From NCBI GenBank assembly GCA_048941285.1, contig JBHLNS010000041.1, positions 1-29,064 of the forward strand: 29,064 nucleotides of DNA. Direction: 5' to 3'. The notes under the pieces are model-generated. The model saw only the letters and a program-made list of their open reading frames with translations. It was not told where the DNA came from and made no database searches. Below, in pieces: positions 17,284-22,670 of the stretch. The position numbers and the translations under genes are program-made. This stretch comes from Promethearchaeota archaeon. Lineage in GTDB: Archaea; Asgardarchaeota; Lokiarchaeia; Sigyniarchaeales; SOKP01. Within the stretch, counting starts at the first letter, position 1. Every line of letters starts with the position of its first letter.

Positions 17284-17628
17284 ATGTCAGAATTCGAAGA
17301 AAAAGTTTTGAAATTACTCGAAGAAATTAATACTAAATTAGATAAAGTATTGAAAGCTGAGCCCAAATCTGTAAGTTCAGCTCCAATGGCATCAACAATT
17401 TCTACTCCCACTGCCACAACAGTTAAACCTTCAGCTGTAGTCGATAGGCAAGAGGAAGAAGCACGATTAGAAGAAAAGCCAGTTTTAGACGGGAGAAGGA
17501 TATGTCCAGAATGTGGAAGTACTGCTTTTGCCACCCACGAGGATAAAAACCAAGTTTTACACCAAATGGGCGGCGTGAAGATTTATGCCAAGAAATATAT
17601 ATGCAAGAATTGCGGGTATGAATATTAA
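17284..17628 (+). CDS. Small protein: short coiled coil + S/T/A/P linker + C-terminal zinc ribbon
   Basis: GAGGAG RBS at 17271-17276; MSEFEEKVLKLLEEINTKLDKV coil; C-terminal RRICPECG...YAKKYICKNCGYEY. Confidence 0.88.
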   Translation: MSEFEEKVLKLLEEINTKLDKVLKAEPKSVSSAPMASTISTPTATTVKPSAVVDRQEEEARLEEKPVLDGRRICPECGSTAFATHEDKNQVLHQMGGVKIYAKKYICKNCGYEY

Positions 17629-17852
17629 ATCACTATTTATCTTTTAAATGTTAATTTTTTTGAATTTTAGGTTTGGTAATAGATACCGCATTTTTATCCT
17701 TATTTTTTTTTATTCTTTCAATAATAGCGCAAGTAATTTTTATAAAAAAGCCCATTATTAAACCTTTAAGTTAGATTTTTAATTTCTATTTACTTAAAAT
17801 TCTTAATTAGAAACGCAATTAGGAACGTGCGGTGCTGAATTAAATTCCTCAA

Positions 17853-18929
17853 ATGAGAGTTAATAAATGGATTCAATACATTAAAAGCTTTATATTGAAT
17901 AATTTCCTTAATAGAAAAATTCCTTATTCTGCACAAATAGAATTAACTCTACGTTGCAATGGAAAATGTCCATTTTGTTCCATTCATTCTTTACCTGAAT
18001 CTATTCTGGGCGAGGATATGAGCACTGAGCAAATAAAACTTTTAATTGATCAAATAGCTGAATTAGGTATTCTCTCTCTTTCTTTTACGGGTGGTGAACC
18101 TACACTACGAAAAGATTTACCAGAATTGATTTATTACACAGGGGTAATCCATGATTTTATGAATGGCATCGCCACTAATGGGTACTTATTGCCTAAATTA
18201 TTTAAAGAACATAAAATAGAAGGTTTAGATTATATTTTACTCTCATTAGATTATCCTACTGCGGAATTACATAATAAGATGCGAGGCATAAAAGCGTTTG
18301 ATAGGGTAATCGAATCTATAAAATTAGCTAAGAAAAATGATATTAAGCCTATTATCAGCACAGTGGTTATGAAAGATAATATCCATCTTCTAGATGATAT
18401 TTGTCAATTAACTGAGCGTTTAGGATGTTCAATTGAATTATATCCCTGTGAAGATATAATAAGAGATTTTACAAACCAAACATACCAAATCAATGATATT
18501 AACGAAATGATTCCAGAGGTATCTGCATGGGCTAAATTAATTCGCTCATTAAGAAAAAAATATCACAATATTTTAACTGATCTAATAAGTGTTGAGGTTG
18601 TAGAGAATGGTGGTTTTGGTGGATACCCTAATTATCATCAAAAAATTTTACGTTGTCATGTTGCTGAAGCATATTTATTTGTTAGTCACGATGGATATAT
18701 TCATTATCCTTGTAAGATTCATCCAATTGTTAGTTATAATTCGTTAAAATATCCAATATCCAGCATTTATAACTCATCTAAAGTAAAAAAAATAATGAAG
18801 ACACATGATAATTATGAATTCTGTAATAATTGTCGTTTGGGATGTGCAATTGTATCCTCGATCCCAACTCGTTGGAAAACAGTTTATTCTAAATTTATTA
18901 AAGGATTTTTGGAAGGTAAGCTAAGATAA
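17853..18929 (+). CDS. Radical SAM protein with C-terminal SPASM/twitch-like Cys motif
   Basis: CNGKCPFC (CxxxCxxC), FTGGEPTLR, TNG, LSLD; later RCHVA...YPC...FCNNCRLGC. Confidence 0.92.
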   Translation: MRVNKWIQYIKSFILNNFLNRKIPYSAQIELTLRCNGKCPFCSIHSLPESILGEDMSTEQIKLLIDQIAELGILSLSFTGGEPTLRKDLPELIYYTGVIHDFMNGIATNGYLLPKLFKEHKIEGLDYILLSLDYPTAELHNKMRGIKAFDRVIESIKLAKKNDIKPIISTVVMKDNIHLLDDICQLTERLGCSIELYPCEDIIRDFTNQTYQINDINEMIPEVSAWAKLIRSLRKKYHNILTDLISVEVVENGGFGGYPNYHQKILRCHVAEAYLFVSHDGYIHYPCKIHPIVSYNSLKYPISSIYNSSKVKKIMKTHDNYEFCNNCRLGCAIVSSIPTRWKTVYSKFIKGFLEGKLR

Positions 18930-19036
18930 TAGAATTAATTATTCAATATCAAATTTTTTCAATGATTTATTTAAGAAAAATAATAATTCAAAAAATTTAA
19001 TTTGAAATATTGTTTTCCTAATATAGTGATAAAATA

Positions 19037-19609
19037 ATGTCAGAAGTAATAGTTATTATTCAAATCGTATTCATTACTTTAGGAATGATTGCCCTAGGAA
19101 TGATTCTTAATCGTTTTTTGGGATTATCAAAAGAAGTAATACAAGATATGAGAAAAAAGGCTCTAAATCTCCGAGAACGGATGAAAAATGCGCAATTTAT
19201 TGGGGATTATCAACAATTAGCACAAATTCAGCGGGAATCCACCCAATTTATGAAGATAATGATGAGAAAACAGATGATTCCGTTATGTTTGAGATGTATT
19301 ATTTTTATCGGGATTTTTATGGTTTTAGGCCTTATTTATGCTGATTATGAAAGTGGTTTGCTACCATTTCCCATTCTAATTTTTGGTAGTGGATGGGTTG
19401 CTATTTACTTAATCTTTTCACTATACTTTTCTTTATTTATTTGGGGAATCAAAAGACTTACGGGAATGGGTGGAAAGACGCAAAGTTCGTTGAAAGAAAT
19501 CATGGGGTTAGTATCCCCTCAACAACAAACAGGACTCTCTTCATATGCGGCTTCAAATATAACGGATATTCCTAGAAAGGATTCATGGAAAGATCGCATT
19601 GAAGAATAG
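19037..19609 (+). CDS. EMC3/TMCO1/DUF106-like (Oxa1 superfamily) membrane insertase
   Basis: TM1, then a helical hairpin with M/Q-rich end (LAQIQRESTQFMKIMMRKQMIP), TM2, a LPFP loop, and GWVAIYLIFS TM3. Confidence 0.8.
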   Translation: MSEVIVIIQIVFITLGMIALGMILNRFLGLSKEVIQDMRKKALNLRERMKNAQFIGDYQQLAQIQRESTQFMKIMMRKQMIPLCLRCIIFIGIFMVLGLIYADYESGLLPFPILIFGSGWVAIYLIFSLYFSLFIWGIKRLTGMGGKTQSSLKEIMGLVSPQQQTGLSSYAASNITDIPRKDSWKDRIEE

Positions 19610-19657
19610 GGAACTAATATAATTAACTTTTTAATTTCTTATAAGTTAAAAAATACA

Positions 19658-19951
19658 ATGAAGCGAAACCTTGTATTAAACATAATTTTTATCGCTTTAT
19701 TTATACTTTTTTTAGTTTTATCTTTGATACTCAATTCATTTTTCTTTATTCACATTATCTGCTTCTTACCCTTCTCTTTTAGCTCATTTAAAAGAAATAG
19801 AACATATTATGAAGAGAAATCAACTCAACCTTCATCCCAGACAGTCTCTAAAAACTTGGAAATAAGATATTGCCAGAGATGTGGTGGAGAAATAACAGAA
19901 TCCCTAGCAGTATATTGTTATCATTGTGGAGAAAAATTAAATAATAAATAA
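19658..19951 (+). CDS. Membrane hairpin protein with C-terminal zinc ribbon
   Basis: N-terminal hydrophobic ~40 aa; YCQRCG...YCYHCGEKL. Confidence 0.82.
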   Translation: MKRNLVLNIIFIALFILFLVLSLILNSFFFIHIICFLPFSFSSFKRNRTYYEEKSTQPSSQTVSKNLEIRYCQRCGGEITESLAVYCYHCGEKLNNK

Positions 19952-19964
19952 CATGTGGTAGATT

Positions 19965-20456
19965 ATGGTTGAAAATAACGATATTAAAAGACAAATGACT
20001 CTCTACTTTATATTTGCAGCAGCTATGATTGGACTCAATTATTTAATTCAAAAGTTTAATGAGTTAGTAGTTGCACCATTTATTTGCAGTAATTTTGGGT
20101 CTATTGAATTTTTTTATGTATTTTATTGTTCAACGGAAACAATTGATATGCCAGAACTGATTGGATCTATTGTAGCAGTTGGAATTACATACATTATTAA
20201 ATTCTTCATAGACAAATACATTGTTTTTAAAAGAACTGGTACTGGATCAAAACAAACCTCAATAGAATTCACTAAATATCTTGGTTTTGCTATATTAACT
20301 ACAATTGAAAATATTGGAATTCAATTTTTACTATCCAACTTTCTTAATTCACCACTAGAAATAAGCTTTATAATCGCACTTTCGATAGGATATCTCACAA
20401 AATTTTTCTTGGATAAAAGATATGTATTTAATATTAGAGAAGAAAAATTAGAATAA
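19965..20456 (+). CDS. GtrA-like membrane protein
   Basis: Four TM helices in two internal repeats ending KFFIDKYIVF and KFFLDKRYVF. Confidence 0.85.
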   Translation: MVENNDIKRQMTLYFIFAAAMIGLNYLIQKFNELVVAPFICSNFGSIEFFYVFYCSTETIDMPELIGSIVAVGITYIIKFFIDKYIVFKRTGTGSKQTSIEFTKYLGFAILTTIENIGIQFLLSNFLNSPLEISFIIALSIGYLTKFFLDKRYVFNIREEKLE

Positions 20457-20494
20457 TAAAAAAATTTAATAAGTCACTAGGTGATTTTAAATAT

Positions 20495-21589
20495 ATGGCT
20501 GAGGAAGATCGTGAGGGAAATAACGATAAATCTATTGTAGAGGCCTTAGGTCAGCTCGGTTGGGTAGAAGAAGAGGAAGAAGAAGAAAAACCTTTTGAAA
20601 GTGAAGATAATCTCAGAGAGCAACTTCATTTCTTTATGGAAGAAAATAAAAGATTAATAAGGGAAATTACTGATAAAGATGAAAAAATACAAAATTTAGA
20701 ACAAGCAGCTCAAGAATTATCTCAAAAAGCAGAAGACAATGCAACTCAGAGTCAAGCTGTTCAAAAATTATATGAAACAATTGAAAGCAAAAATGATGTA
20801 ATTGAAAATTTAACTTATACTCTCGAGGAACAATCATCAAAATCTAATACAACTATTACTGAACAAGATGAAAAAATTAAAGAATTAAATACCCAAATTG
20901 AACACTTTCAATCAGAACAAGCTAAAAATCAAGATTTACAAAAAAAATTAGACGATAAAGAAACTCTTATAAAAGAATTAAAAGAACAATTAGAATACCT
21001 TGAAAATGATTCAATTCAAAAATCTAAATTTGATAAACTTGAAGTTCTTTTAGAAAAAAAAGATGAGATAATCACTGAAAAAGAGAAATCTATTTTTACT
21101 CTGGAAAATGAATTGAACACATCTAATCAAAAAATCCATGATCTTCAACAACAACTAGAAACGTTCAATTTAGTAAAAAAAGATCTTGAAAAAAAAGTAG
21201 AACGAAATAAGACTTTAGTTGTTGAAATTGAAGAATTGAAGCAAAAAAACATGACAAATCTAGAATTGGTTGAGCGTTATGAAGAAAAGCTAGAAGAAGC
21301 TCATAAAAAAGCAGGAAATTTAACTGGTAAATTTGAATTAGAGTTAGCAAATATGAGAAGTATGCTTGACGACAAATCACATGAGGTAAAAGGATTGAGG
21401 GAACAGTTAAAGGAATTACAAAGTACGACCGGTGATACTATACAAAAAGAGGATAACCTTTTGAATGATCTCCAGCAAATTAAAGATGATAAAGTAAAAT
21501 TAGAATCAGAAATCCAAGAAAAAAATGATGAAATAGTTGAATTAAAGAAGAAAATTAAACTAATGCGAAGAGAACTACAAAAATCTTAA
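20495..21589 (+). CDS. Long coiled-coil protein without enzymatic domain
   Basis: E/K/Q/L-rich heptad-like sequence over ~320 aa with no Pro in the rod; acidic N-terminal head; AGGTGA RBS upstream. Confidence 0.88.
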   Translation: MAEEDREGNNDKSIVEALGQLGWVEEEEEEEKPFESEDNLREQLHFFMEENKRLIREITDKDEKIQNLEQAAQELSQKAEDNATQSQAVQKLYETIESKNDVIENLTYTLEEQSSKSNTTITEQDEKIKELNTQIEHFQSEQAKNQDLQKKLDDKETLIKELKEQLEYLENDSIQKSKFDKLEVLLEKKDEIITEKEKSIFTLENELNTSNQKIHDLQQQLETFNLVKKDLEKKVERNKTLVVEIEELKQKNMTNLELVERYEEKLEEAHKKAGNLTGKFELELANMRSMLDDKSHEVKGLREQLKELQSTTGDTIQKEDNLLNDLQQIKDDKVKLESEIQEKNDEIVELKKKIKLMRRELQKS

Positions 21590-21659
21590 TTAAAAATTAG
21601 TTTACATTGTTTACCATTAAAACCATTAAAAAAAGAGAAAAAATAAAATATTTAAAACC

Positions 21660-22670
21660 TTATTTTTCGCGCCACTCAACTCCACATTGGCCGCATTTAT
21701 ACTTTTTTCCATATACTCTTGGATAATCAAGAATAATATTAGATTTATCAACGCTCTCATGAATCATGTGAGGGTCATCGGTTCTGCATTCTGGGCAACT
21801 CCTTCTTGTTCCATCCATTTTCTCAACAGTTCTAATAGAAGTATCTGTTCTACCAGGTATTCCTGGTGCAGCCCCGGAAGCCTTCACCTCAGAAATCTCT
21901 GCTTGTATTTGTTCTGGAGAAACGTCTCTAACTTCTGATTTAAATTCTGGTTTAATGGCTCCTGCAATTCTATCATCTTCATCTTCTCCTTCTAATACTG
22001 ATTCTGCTTTTAATTGCACCGCATCAGATTCTTTATAATCTACTCCTCTTTCTAACGCTGCCTTAAATTCTGCATCATCCCCTTCTTCAAAGATAAATTC
22101 TTTTTGCAAACCAGCTCTATCAGCATCTATTGCGCGTGCCCACTGACCAGCTTTTACACGTTCAGTCACAGTACAAGCATTTCCTTGCCAAATATAGACT
22201 TTGTTACCTAAATCAGCAACATAACAATCTTCGGATTCTAATGATTCCTGTTTGTACGGTACTTGAATCATTTTCATCGCATTAATATCTTCGAATTCTT
22301 CCGACGAGACTCTATAAAGGACGTTTTTCCATTCTGTAAATCCCGCCCAATCACCTGTTGTTACATCTTTAAGCAGTGTTTTAGCAATATTTTTTTCAAC
22401 AATTTTCATTGCTCCCATTATACTAATCGTTTTCATAAATTCTTTTGATTCTTGGCCCTGATCTACCGTAATAATTTTAGCAGCACCACCACGTTGTTGG
22501 TCAAGCGTTCTTGCTTGAGCTGCACCTGCAGTCTTTTCATCTACTGAACACTTATTACCTATCCAGACATAAATAGTCTTTTCATCGTCTAAAAGGTAAA
22601 CATCCCCGCTGGAGAAGATTGGTTTATTGACTTCTTTTAAATTACCTTGTTCAATAATAAAAAGTTTCAT
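21660..22670 (-). CDS. Two-domain gelsolin-like protein with acidic linker and C-terminal zinc ribbon
   Basis: Repeat 1: FSSGDVYLLDDEKTIYVWIG..CSVDEK...VDQGQESKEF. Repeat 2: LESEDCYVADLGNKVYIWQG..CTVTER...FEEGDDAEF. Both are gelsolin-domain signatures. C-terminal CPEC...CGQCG. Confidence 0.92.
   Translation of the reverse strand: MKLFIIEQGNLKEVNKPIFSSGDVYLLDDEKTIYVWIGNKCSVDEKTAGAAQARTLDQQRGGAAKIITVDQGQESKEFMKTISIMGAMKIVEKNIAKTLLKDVTTGDWAGFTEWKNVLYRVSSEEFEDINAMKMIQVPYKQESLESEDCYVADLGNKVYIWQGNACTVTERVKAGQWARAIDADRAGLQKEFIFEEGDDAEFKAALERGVDYKESDAVQLKAESVLEGEDEDDRIAGAIKPEFKSEVRDVSPEQIQAEISEVKASGAAPGIPGRTDTSIRTVEKMDGTRRSCPECRTDDPHMIHESVDKSNIILDYPRVYGKKYKCGQCGVEWREK

Follow-up and report, generated by a model that had tools for sequence, protein, structure and literature searches.

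To our knowledge, no prokaryotes other than the Asgard archaea have a regulated actin cytoskeleton, and in the Loki gelsolin that has been studied best, the Zn domain is the only part for which we know of no assigned role. That protein, Loki2DGel (KKK44901.1), is described by Akil et al. (2022, Commun Biol 5:890; PMC9433394) as ending in a 69-residue Link and a potential zinc-binding domain. According to the accessible part of that paper, the domain is found on Loki two-domain gelsolins (2DGels) and on unrelated multidomain proteins, at C-termini only, also exists as a discrete small protein, was not consistently detected by the authors outside Loki, has a basic isoelectric point (8.8), and shows, across its sequences, an extended loop whose tip carries a tyrosine. 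The same pages report no association of the Zn domain with F-actin in co-sedimentation with rabbit actin, do not report bundling, describe an even spread of a green fluorescent protein (GFP)-Loki tail fusion in human cells, and propose in the Discussion that the domain probably binds a cellular feature, which amounts to a docking hypothesis. Here we analyse a 29,064-nucleotide stretch of DNA from a Promethearchaeota archaeon (contig JBHLNS010000041.1 of assembly GCA_048941285.1; the whole stretch is called the window below), in which a gelsolin gene and a gene for a 114-residue protein, p114, encode related C-terminal zinc-ribbon tails. The source genome comprises 3.55 Mb in 101 contigs and is 94% complete, the window being contig C72. 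The features of the two genes are as follows.

17284..17628, + strand: p114 (P0001), 114 amino acids; open reading frame and translation, with an N-terminal helix, a disordered P/S/T linker, an acidic stretch and a C-terminal zinc ribbon
17290..17355, + strand: conserved amphipathic helix of p114, residues 3-24, SEFEQKVLKLLEEINxKLDKLL; predicted by AlphaFold2 and supported by orthologue identity
17491..17625, + strand: zinc ribbon of p114, residues 70-114, 'A-type', loop HQMGG; family model match E 1.5e-22, domain tree, loop compared in 27 orthologues
21660..22670, - strand: two-domain gelsolin with Link and Zn domain (P0002), 336 amino acids, Loki2DGel orthologue; Pfam Gelsolin match and PDB 7WHG chain G
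22056..22670, - strand: gelsolin domains D1-D2, residues 1-205; mean identity 0.82 to 62 orthologues
21825..22055, - strand: gelsolin Link, residues 206-282, acidic; mean identity 0.69, minimum 0.31
21663..21824, - strand: gelsolin Zn domain, residues 283-336, 'G-type', loop LDYPR; family model match E 2.6e-23, AlphaFold2 model

P0002 matches PDB 7WHG chain G, 'Lokiarchaeota gelsolin (2DGel)' (335 amino acids), with E 1.2e-173 over residues 1-336, that is, through the Zn domain, and contains two Pfam Gelsolin (PF00626) stretches (E 4.9e-28; 97.2 bits against a cut-off of 21). When a profile of 21 tails was compared with the PDB, the sole specific match was 7WHG_G, residues 283-333 (E 5.3e-15). 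These alignments identify the shared tail as the 'Zn domain' of the Lokiarchaeal two-domain gelsolin and P0002 as an orthologue of Loki2DGel, with which, as with MKD1-2DGel, it shares two gelsolin domains, a Link of about 70 residues and a (CxxC)2 pattern, so far as the accessible description goes (PMC9433394; 7WHG). The module itself is thus not new, and the central docking inference of an earlier interpretation of this DNA, made from the letters alone (the sequence-only reading), had already been published. That reading knew of no described function for the domain; this holds for function, but the existence of the domain, the fact that it is portable and also occurs alone, and the idea of docking are all printed in the part of PMC9433394 that we could consult. 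A literature search on Loki2DGel and the Asgard gelsolin zinc domain found no further paper on this domain, and the zinc ribbons in the accessible part of an ESCRT survey (PMC10936438) are different ones, with differently arranged domains. As to the window, the outcome is largely unremarkable: one of its proteins is the orthologue of a published one, and another adds a carrier to the family. New, relative to the accessible text of PMC9433394, are a census of carriers, a stand-alone copy in many Asgard families outside Loki, a division into two subgroups with a tyrosine-less p114, and a conserved co-location.

The related tails comprise residues 70-114 of p114 (17491-17625) and 287-336 of the gelsolin (21663-21812). 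A whole-protein BLASTP comparison gives E 8e-10 and 33% identity over 96 columns, which cover only the tails and parts of the linkers; the tails alone are 41% identical, including RR-CPEC, HE and Y-KKY-C-CG-E. Both hold a (Cys-X-X-Cys)2 arrangement, CPEC followed by C..C, the four cysteines of which are invariant in alignment A3, and these four cysteines in two knuckles suggest putative zinc binding. A family hidden Markov model (HMM), built from nine tails of the window's genome and used to scan its 10,773 open reading frames (ORFs) of at least 40 amino acids, recovers nine full domains (E 1.5e-26 to 1.8e-22) and one 42-residue fragment (1.2e-8), with a sharp gap to other zinc ribbons, the next-best ORF reaching only E 0.0025. 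Among 1.84 billion representative proteins the profile has 579 matches at E <= 1e-3 and 287 at 1e-10. For the two tails and seven stand-alone relatives, every match to a curated Pfam or NCBIfam family (including Zn_Ribbon_1, Zn_Ribbon_TF, DUF7340 and Lar) stays under its cut-off, the best curated ribbon match of p114 being Zn_Ribbon_1 with 20.9 bits against 25. In the ESM Atlas, a search with the 64-residue stand-alone protein returned its own cluster at 0.98, unnamed clusters at 0.86 and nothing else. In an alignment of 21 tails, which come from the window's own and 12 further genomes, C-P-x-C ... D-K ... Y-x-K ... C-x-x-C is retained. Two CxxC knuckles and a three-stranded sheet are common to this family and to generic zinc ribbons (NrdR, TFIIS domain III, Rpb9/TFS, Pfam Zn_Ribbon), from which it differs in having 23-27 residues between the knuckles and its own DK...Y...P.Y.KK motif.

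Structure models agree with this picture. AlphaFold2, given the 21-sequence alignment, models the gelsolin tail with a mean predicted local distance difference test score (pLDDT) of 78.7, as a long β-hairpin (residues 23-34/39-46 of the 56-residue piece, with DYPR at the tip) between the two CxxC knuckles, plus a short third strand. The model of p114 (mean pLDDT 71.9) contains the same hairpin at 82-95/98-107 (pLDDT 83-89), a confident helix at 3-24 (pLDDT 86-91), a disordered stretch at 28-44 (pLDDT < 50) and a low-confidence helix at 49-61. The earlier description of p114 as a small coiled-coil protein is thus supported in part, by the one confident helix, and its coiled coil is putative. 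A fold search against 48,161 PDB representatives found no match reaching Z 5, and the top rows are zinc ribbons: NrdR (Z 4.3, root-mean-square deviation 2.7 Å over 41 residues), TFIIS (Z 3.2-3.5), Dof, TFS4 and Rpb9. The predicted fold is that of an ordinary zinc ribbon with an unusually long hairpin, and it implies no function.

The ribbon is the better conserved part of the tail regions. Measured against the window protein, orthologues of the gelsolin average an identity of 0.69 in the linker and 0.75 in the ribbon; for p114 the values are 0.74 for the N-terminal helix, 0.42 for the linker and 0.80 for the ribbon, and mean column identity in two tail alignments is 74% (A4) and 71% (A5). These values point to purifying selection on the ribbon in its carriers, with variable linkers. 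The sequence-only reading had proposed that the gelsolin and p114 share a homologous tail, that the likeness exceeds generic CxxC similarity and would separate from generic zinc ribbons in an HMM scan, and that both ribbons sit C-terminally behind a linker. The BLASTP match and tail identity bear out the homology down to the coordinates, the nine-tail model isolates a specific family in the genome and in the representative proteins, and the poorly conserved linkers, with the low confidence of p114 residues 28-44, agree with the proposed layout.

The nine-tail profile was also run on 400 genomes of the phylum; the resulting figures are matches, not copy numbers, with 16 candidates scored per genome. 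Matches occur in 241 of the 400. The window's own family has them in 134/134 genomes (3-16 matches each), the other families of the Loki order in 19/19 (4-9 matches) and the other families of the Loki class in 7/7 (1-3 matches). Outside the class, exactly one match is the rule in families f9 (3/3 genomes), f11 (4/4), f13 (30/31), f18 (12/12), f20 (5/5), f21 (5/6), f26 (3/3), f27 (4/4) and f28 (4/5), and matches are absent or nearly so in f16 (0/22), f19 (0/19), f24 (0/7), f25 (0/5), f15 (2/12) and three more families (3/89). Eight of these single matches, from genomes outside the Loki class, were examined: seven are stand-alone proteins of 47-66 amino acids, and the eighth is a protein of 103 amino acids with a C-terminal P/E-rich extension; in the class relatives G126 and G128 the ribbon matches are fused to coiled coils. 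All of these ribbons align over the whole domain. In a search with short proteins, all 15 rows with an organism name were Asgard (Jord-, Frey-, Odin-, Heimdall-, Thor- and Loki/Promethearchaeota). Taken together, the profile matches indicate an Asgard-restricted zinc ribbon of about 45 residues. The family-level tallies are independent of public names, some of which are doubtful at the phylum level, as public metagenome-assembled genomes titled Hermod-, Hod-, Thor- and Odinarchaeota (among loci L031-L097) contain gelsolins up to 88% identical to that of the window, in the same gene order.

In the window's genome (G000) there are nine full carriers and one fragment. The nine are the gelsolin, p114, a stand-alone protein of 64 amino acids (contig C59), coiled-coil proteins of 143, 149, 159, 281 and 304 amino acids, and a protein of 274 amino acids; six are thus of coiled-coil type when p114 is counted, one is a gelsolin, one stands alone and one (the 274-residue protein) is without a family match. 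The gelsolin aside, Pfam gives only coiled-coil-type matches to the non-ribbon parts of these carriers. Among 325 domain-bearing proteins, the domain lies within 12 residues of the C-terminus in 319, as expected for the portable C-terminal module of the sequence-only reading; p114 ends at the ribbon and the gelsolin three residues past it. Sixty-six of the 325 are no longer than 80 amino acids, and 12 hold more than one copy. In the Loki order nearly every copy closes a protein, following a flexible linker. A Pfam scan (E <= 1e-5) of the 150 carriers of at least 150 amino acids found two globular families, Gelsolin (3 proteins) and DUF11 (2), and no other; the other families listed are coiled-coil models (SlyX 20, ATG16 18, crescentin rod 15, and others). 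With three Gelsolin matches among the 150, gelsolin is the only recognisable actin-related partner, and a bias of the carriers toward recognisable actin proteins is not borne out; 'coiled coil' cannot be equated with 'cytoskeletal'.

Several carriers deserve separate mention. The 149-residue coiled-coil carrier (G000:C101:11655-12104; L007) matches Cnn_1N, the Centrosomin N-terminal motif 1, with 30.5 bits against a cut-off of 28.5, probably a coiled-coil artefact. The N-terminal motif ..W.K.E.KP.K..KV.G.YLLD... is common to coiled-coil carriers of 281-342 amino acids (G000:C43:28867-29712, which is L003, and L017 and L019, which belong to two other families of the class); it marks a group of carriers whose conservation spans the class and that may have a second binding site. 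Six proteins of 484-586 amino acids (P0125, P0127, P0129, P0130, P0132 and P0134) have two ribbon copies each; in P0125 and P0134 the Pfam ribbon match is the second copy, at the C-terminus, and the first lies about 150 residues earlier, while the first ~330 residues of the two-copy proteins have no Pfam match. Two ribbon carriers of about 700 amino acids, P0212 and P0254, have DUF11 β-sandwich repeats, and P0254 has a sub-threshold match to an adaptor-complex medium-subunit family (28.8 against 31.6 bits). PF24161 is frequent in precomputed match lists of carriers and absent from our own Pfam scans.

Two groups, with 82/97 support, appear in a weakly resolved tree (59 columns) of 32 domains, drawn from the window's genome and from three complete genomes that belong to another family. 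The G-type contains the gelsolin tails and the 64-residue stand-alone protein, which is encoded on another contig and is the closest paralogue of the window's gelsolin tail (67-68% identity); the A-type contains the p114 ribbon with those of most coiled-coil carriers. Orthologues of p114, 92-125 amino acids long, are found at 35 of 48 related loci (E 1e-31 to 1e-61), and a p114 match is present in 48 of the 54 genomes of the genus. The p114 of the window has HQMGG as its hairpin loop, as do 22 of 27 orthologues; the remaining ones have closely similar sequences, and none of the loops contains tyrosine. The loop tyrosine is present in the gelsolin tail (LDYPR, at the tip of the hairpin) and absent from p114; tyrosine occupies profile position 31 or 32 in 284 of 337 domains, and the glutamine of p114 is found at position 32 in 16. 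These comparisons identify p114 as one ribbon paralogue with its own orthologous group, not the nearest relative of the gelsolin tail, and they revealed no special tie between the two proteins. The different hairpin tips, DYPR in the gelsolin, SY.G in most coiled-coil carriers and HQMGG in p114, suggest that the subgroups may have diverged in target or affinity.

The region that holds both tails covers seven genes, six on the + strand and the gelsolin gene convergent on the - strand. The five genes between p114 and the gelsolin gene have unrelated predicted functions.

17853-18929, + strand: radical-SAM/SPASM protein (Pfam scan)
19037-19609, + strand: EMC3/TMCO1-like membrane protein, 190 amino acids (Pfam, 28.8 bits against a cut-off of 27.1)
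19658-19951, + strand: 97-residue membrane protein with an unrelated short CxxC...CxxC motif
19965-20456, + strand: GtrA-like protein
20495..21589, + strand: 364-residue coiled-coil protein (P0003), tail-to-tail with the gelsolin gene (sub-threshold coiled-coil-type matches only)

Upstream of p114, DAO, Pyr_redox_2 and DUF1667 genes also lie on the + strand. P0003 does not have the zinc ribbon. The product of 19037-19609 is a possible homologue of Oxa1-superfamily insertases, with a score just over the Pfam cut-off. The protein of 19658-19951 combines a hydrophobic N-terminal stretch with CQRCG...CYHCG, a zinc ribbon of another kind without a match to the family HMM.

Gene order was compared at 67 loci with gelsolin relatives of 61-90% identity in the best aligned segment. 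A homologue of the gene for the 364-residue coiled coil adjoins the gelsolin gene in 58 of them, and a separate p114 orthologue lies past the radical-SAM gene in 35 of the 48 loci that reach this gene, in some with extra DNA between. The co-location of p114 and gelsolin anticipated by the sequence-only reading is thus conserved within the family, across five unrelated genes; as the compared genomes are close kin, the shared gene order carries little weight. For a second family, represented by three complete genomes, the intervening genes of the window, including that for the 364-residue coiled coil, were not found beside the gelsolin gene. In all three, a stand-alone ribbon gene for 61-66 amino acids lies 0.15, 2.4 or 4.3 kb from the gelsolin-ribbon gene, in convergent orientation (L098:7401-8794, L099:7612-11252 and L100:7075-12558). 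In the domain tree these small ribbons are G-type and not p114 orthologues, and the possibility that p114 is their positional orthologue was discarded on this ground, within the weak resolution of the tree. The stand-alone ribbon near the gelsolin gene of the second family may be the source of the gelsolin's tail.

From these data we favour, at a probability of about 0.5, a reading in which an Asgard ribbon expanded in the Loki order as a C-terminal tether. The ribbon would have been inherited from a small stand-alone Asgard protein, copied in the Loki order onto structural proteins, and would there serve as a docking module that tethers its fused partner to a conserved cellular component. That component would be whatever the ancestral stand-alone protein already bound, probably not F-actin itself, and p114, like other small carriers and the stand-alone copies, could fill the docking sites or compete for them. 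The homology of the tails, their C-terminal position, the expansion, the types of carrier and the purifying selection on the ribbon are the observations on which this reading builds, and the small ribbon genes near the gelsolin gene in two families speak for it; that the ribbon binds anything, and what it binds, we infer. The published docking hypothesis (PMC9433394, accessible part) agrees with it and is not independent evidence.

Several observations weigh against docking. The GFP-tail signal was uniform in human cells, and co-sedimentation with F-actin was negative (PMC9433394, accessible part). The conserved cysteines, the proline, the tyrosine before the second knuckle and the final aromatic residue are needed for folding, so that conservation alone is no proof of a binding surface. 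The lack in p114 of the loop tyrosine found in most domains weakens the notion that ribbons compete for a single common receptor. The small ribbons close to gelsolin in the two families are not orthologues of each other, so their co-location may reflect local duplication and not function; the recurrence of a small ribbon gene near gelsolin in two families is explained equally well as a trace of the local duplication that gave gelsolin its tail. The single-copy ribbon gene outside the Loki class has different neighbours in all eight genomes examined, and the eight further ribbon loci of the window's genome share no recurring neighbour and are surrounded by unrelated metabolic and transport genes. 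The expansion, too, is read from match counts limited to the scored candidates of each genome.

Other roles for the ribbon are less probable. The presence of many paralogues in one cell, the small ribbon genes close to the gelsolin gene in two families and the ability of exposed β-hairpins to pair edge to edge would suit an oligomerisation tag, whose ribbon-ribbon contacts would co-assemble gelsolin, p114, stand-alone copies and coiled-coil carriers. We consider this unlikely, as the ancestral state of one stand-alone copy per genome fits a heterologous partner at least as well, and self-association of Loki2DGel is unmentioned in the accessible text of PMC9433394. Binding of DNA or RNA, with the coiled-coil carriers as chromosome or ribonucleoprotein tethers, is doubtful to a similar degree: the nearest folds (NrdR, TFIIS, Dof, TFS4, Rpb9) are associated with nucleic acids, the lysines beside the second knuckle are conserved and the domain is basic, but all Z scores lie at a level described as common by the search tool, there is no evident reason for tethering a gelsolin to nucleic acid, and the accessible part of PMC9433394 shows no concentration of the GFP-tail in the human nucleus. 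An anchor at the archaeal membrane or envelope, where a basic, aromatic-tipped hairpin would hold gelsolin and coiled coils at the cortex or in protrusions, has in its favour the architecture of long coiled coil, flexible linker and small terminal anchor, the aromatic residue at the hairpin tip of most members and the coincidence of the expansion with the Loki order. It, too, appears improbable, since the Pfam and NCBIfam scans gave no match to a lipid-binding family, p114 is without the tip tyrosine, and the GFP-tail was uniform in human cells, though archaeal lipids differ (PMC9433394, accessible part).

The least probable of these alternatives is the one that the sequence-only reading had adopted, in which the ribbon is a second actin-binding site on Lokiactin filaments and its carriers form a set of actin adaptors or cross-linkers. 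In villin, a linker connects gelsolin repeats to the headpiece, a small module at the end of the protein, and by analogy the ribbon, likewise a terminal module fused to gelsolin repeats behind a linker, might confer a second binding activity, with coiled-coil carriers as possible cross-linkers. The two modules differ in fold, helical in the headpiece and a zinc ribbon here, and in the accessible part of PMC9433394 the Zn domain showed no F-actin association. The published assay used rabbit actin and not Lokiactin, but this rabbit actin does respond to the Loki gelsolin domains, and a gelsolin domain occurs in just 3 of the 150 longer carriers, with no other actin-related family among them. An actin-specific adaptor system is not supported. 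Within the preferred docking reading, a more elaborate scheme strikes us as a long shot: the ribbons would mark the address of a cortical or cytoskeletal scaffold of Lokiarchaeia, the ancestral protein would bind a conserved Asgard structure, its tag would have been copied as an address onto some ten structural coiled-coil proteins and a calcium-regulated gelsolin, so that actin severing and coiled-coil scaffolds are sited together, p114 and the stand-alone proteins with genes next to that of gelsolin would act as competitors or regulators, and a bulge-helix-bulge mini-intron situated exactly in front of the second knuckle (see below) would decide in some strains whether the ribbon is complete. 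For a search for the docking partner, the single ancestral small protein across Asgard, its roughly tenfold multiplication in the Loki order and the near-exclusive coiled-coil carriers there provide handles.

The p114 match is truncated or contains a stop in 10 of the 48 genomes of the genus that have one; the p114 gene of the window is free of such an insertion. Insertion-bearing p114 genes were found at loci L031, L032, L036, L038, L040, L048, L057, L172, L174, L177, L182, L185 and L186, and 10 distinct records were inspected. The ORF is broken by 28-32 nucleotides (nt) with a hairpin and a stop or frame shift, at site A, between ..IYAK and KYVC.. (6 records), or at site B, within ..VCK/QCG.. 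(4 records). The second knuckle remains encoded in the piece downstream, which runs to the usual stop codon and whose codon differences among carriers are mostly synonymous (63 versus 29 for site A, 14 versus 7 for site B). With the bulge-helix-bulge motif defined after the accessible part of bioRxiv 10.64898/2026.10.13.758758, and cuts placed past the second bulge nucleotide, seven of the ten (L031, L032, L048, L036/L172, L174, L177 and L186) have a central helix with 4/4 pairs, 3-nt bulges and an adjacent helix of 5-11 base pairs (bp), and excision of 29, 29, 32 and four times 30 nt yields exactly ..GGVKIYAKKY[VI]C..CG.... In L038, L040 and L057 the 4/4 register (28 nt) breaks the frame and a 3/4 register (30 nt) restores it. 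Helix, bulge and hairpin are visible in five of eight minimum-free-energy folds.

Another small ribbon gene of the window's genome (G000:C52:66510-66750; locus L111:6011-6250) contains two insertions, 29 and 30 nt long, that break it. Removal of the first (4/4) leaves AUG as the junction codon and restores ..LYYSMQGTPVY.., YYSMQGTPVY being present in two of three intact orthologues of another family; the second has 3/4 central pairs in the register that includes the 9-bp hairpin. The gene is also broken in G189, a genome of the same genus. The C52 gene is either intron-bearing or decaying. Its insertions fold no better than shuffled sequences (z -0.41 and -0.03).

Against an intron reading, such motifs arise often by chance in AT-rich DNA, with several of 14-60 nt per 400 nt, and a search of RNA runs for the C52 gene listed none. 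Furthermore, G000 was scanned for stretches of 18-45 nt that are flanked by a bulge-helix-bulge and, once removed, would fuse two ORFs of at least 100 codons; this gave 18 candidates, the same number as with a shifted cut, and thus no support for introns in long genes. In several of the 18 the second ORF starts at or next to a methionine, and on inspection these look like adjacent genes. The insertions are not repeated elements, as a search with up to 4 mismatches in G000 and the 67 gelsolin loci found only chance AT-rich look-alikes, one of them intergenic on contig C8. A spliceosomal GT-AG reading, examined manually, was discarded, since a stop would remain or the frame would be broken.

Among archaea, a protein-coding gene with bulge-helix-bulge introns has been described in cbf5 of Crenarchaeota (PMC2738675). 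As far as the accessible part of that report shows, the insertions in the ribbon genes resemble them in the 4-bp central helix, the 3-nt bulges, the adjacent hairpin and the restoration of the protein on excision, and differ in occurring in Lokiarchaeial genomes and small zinc-ribbon genes, in their length of 29-32 nt and in being known from DNA alone. A literature search on Asgard introns returned introns of tRNA genes and none of protein-coding genes. We regard the insertions as candidate endonuclease-spliced mini-introns in a protein-coding gene of Lokiarchaeia. The window's genome encodes two EndA-family proteins, and if confirmed by RNA, the insertions would extend endonuclease-type splicing of protein-coding genes to the Asgard archaea.

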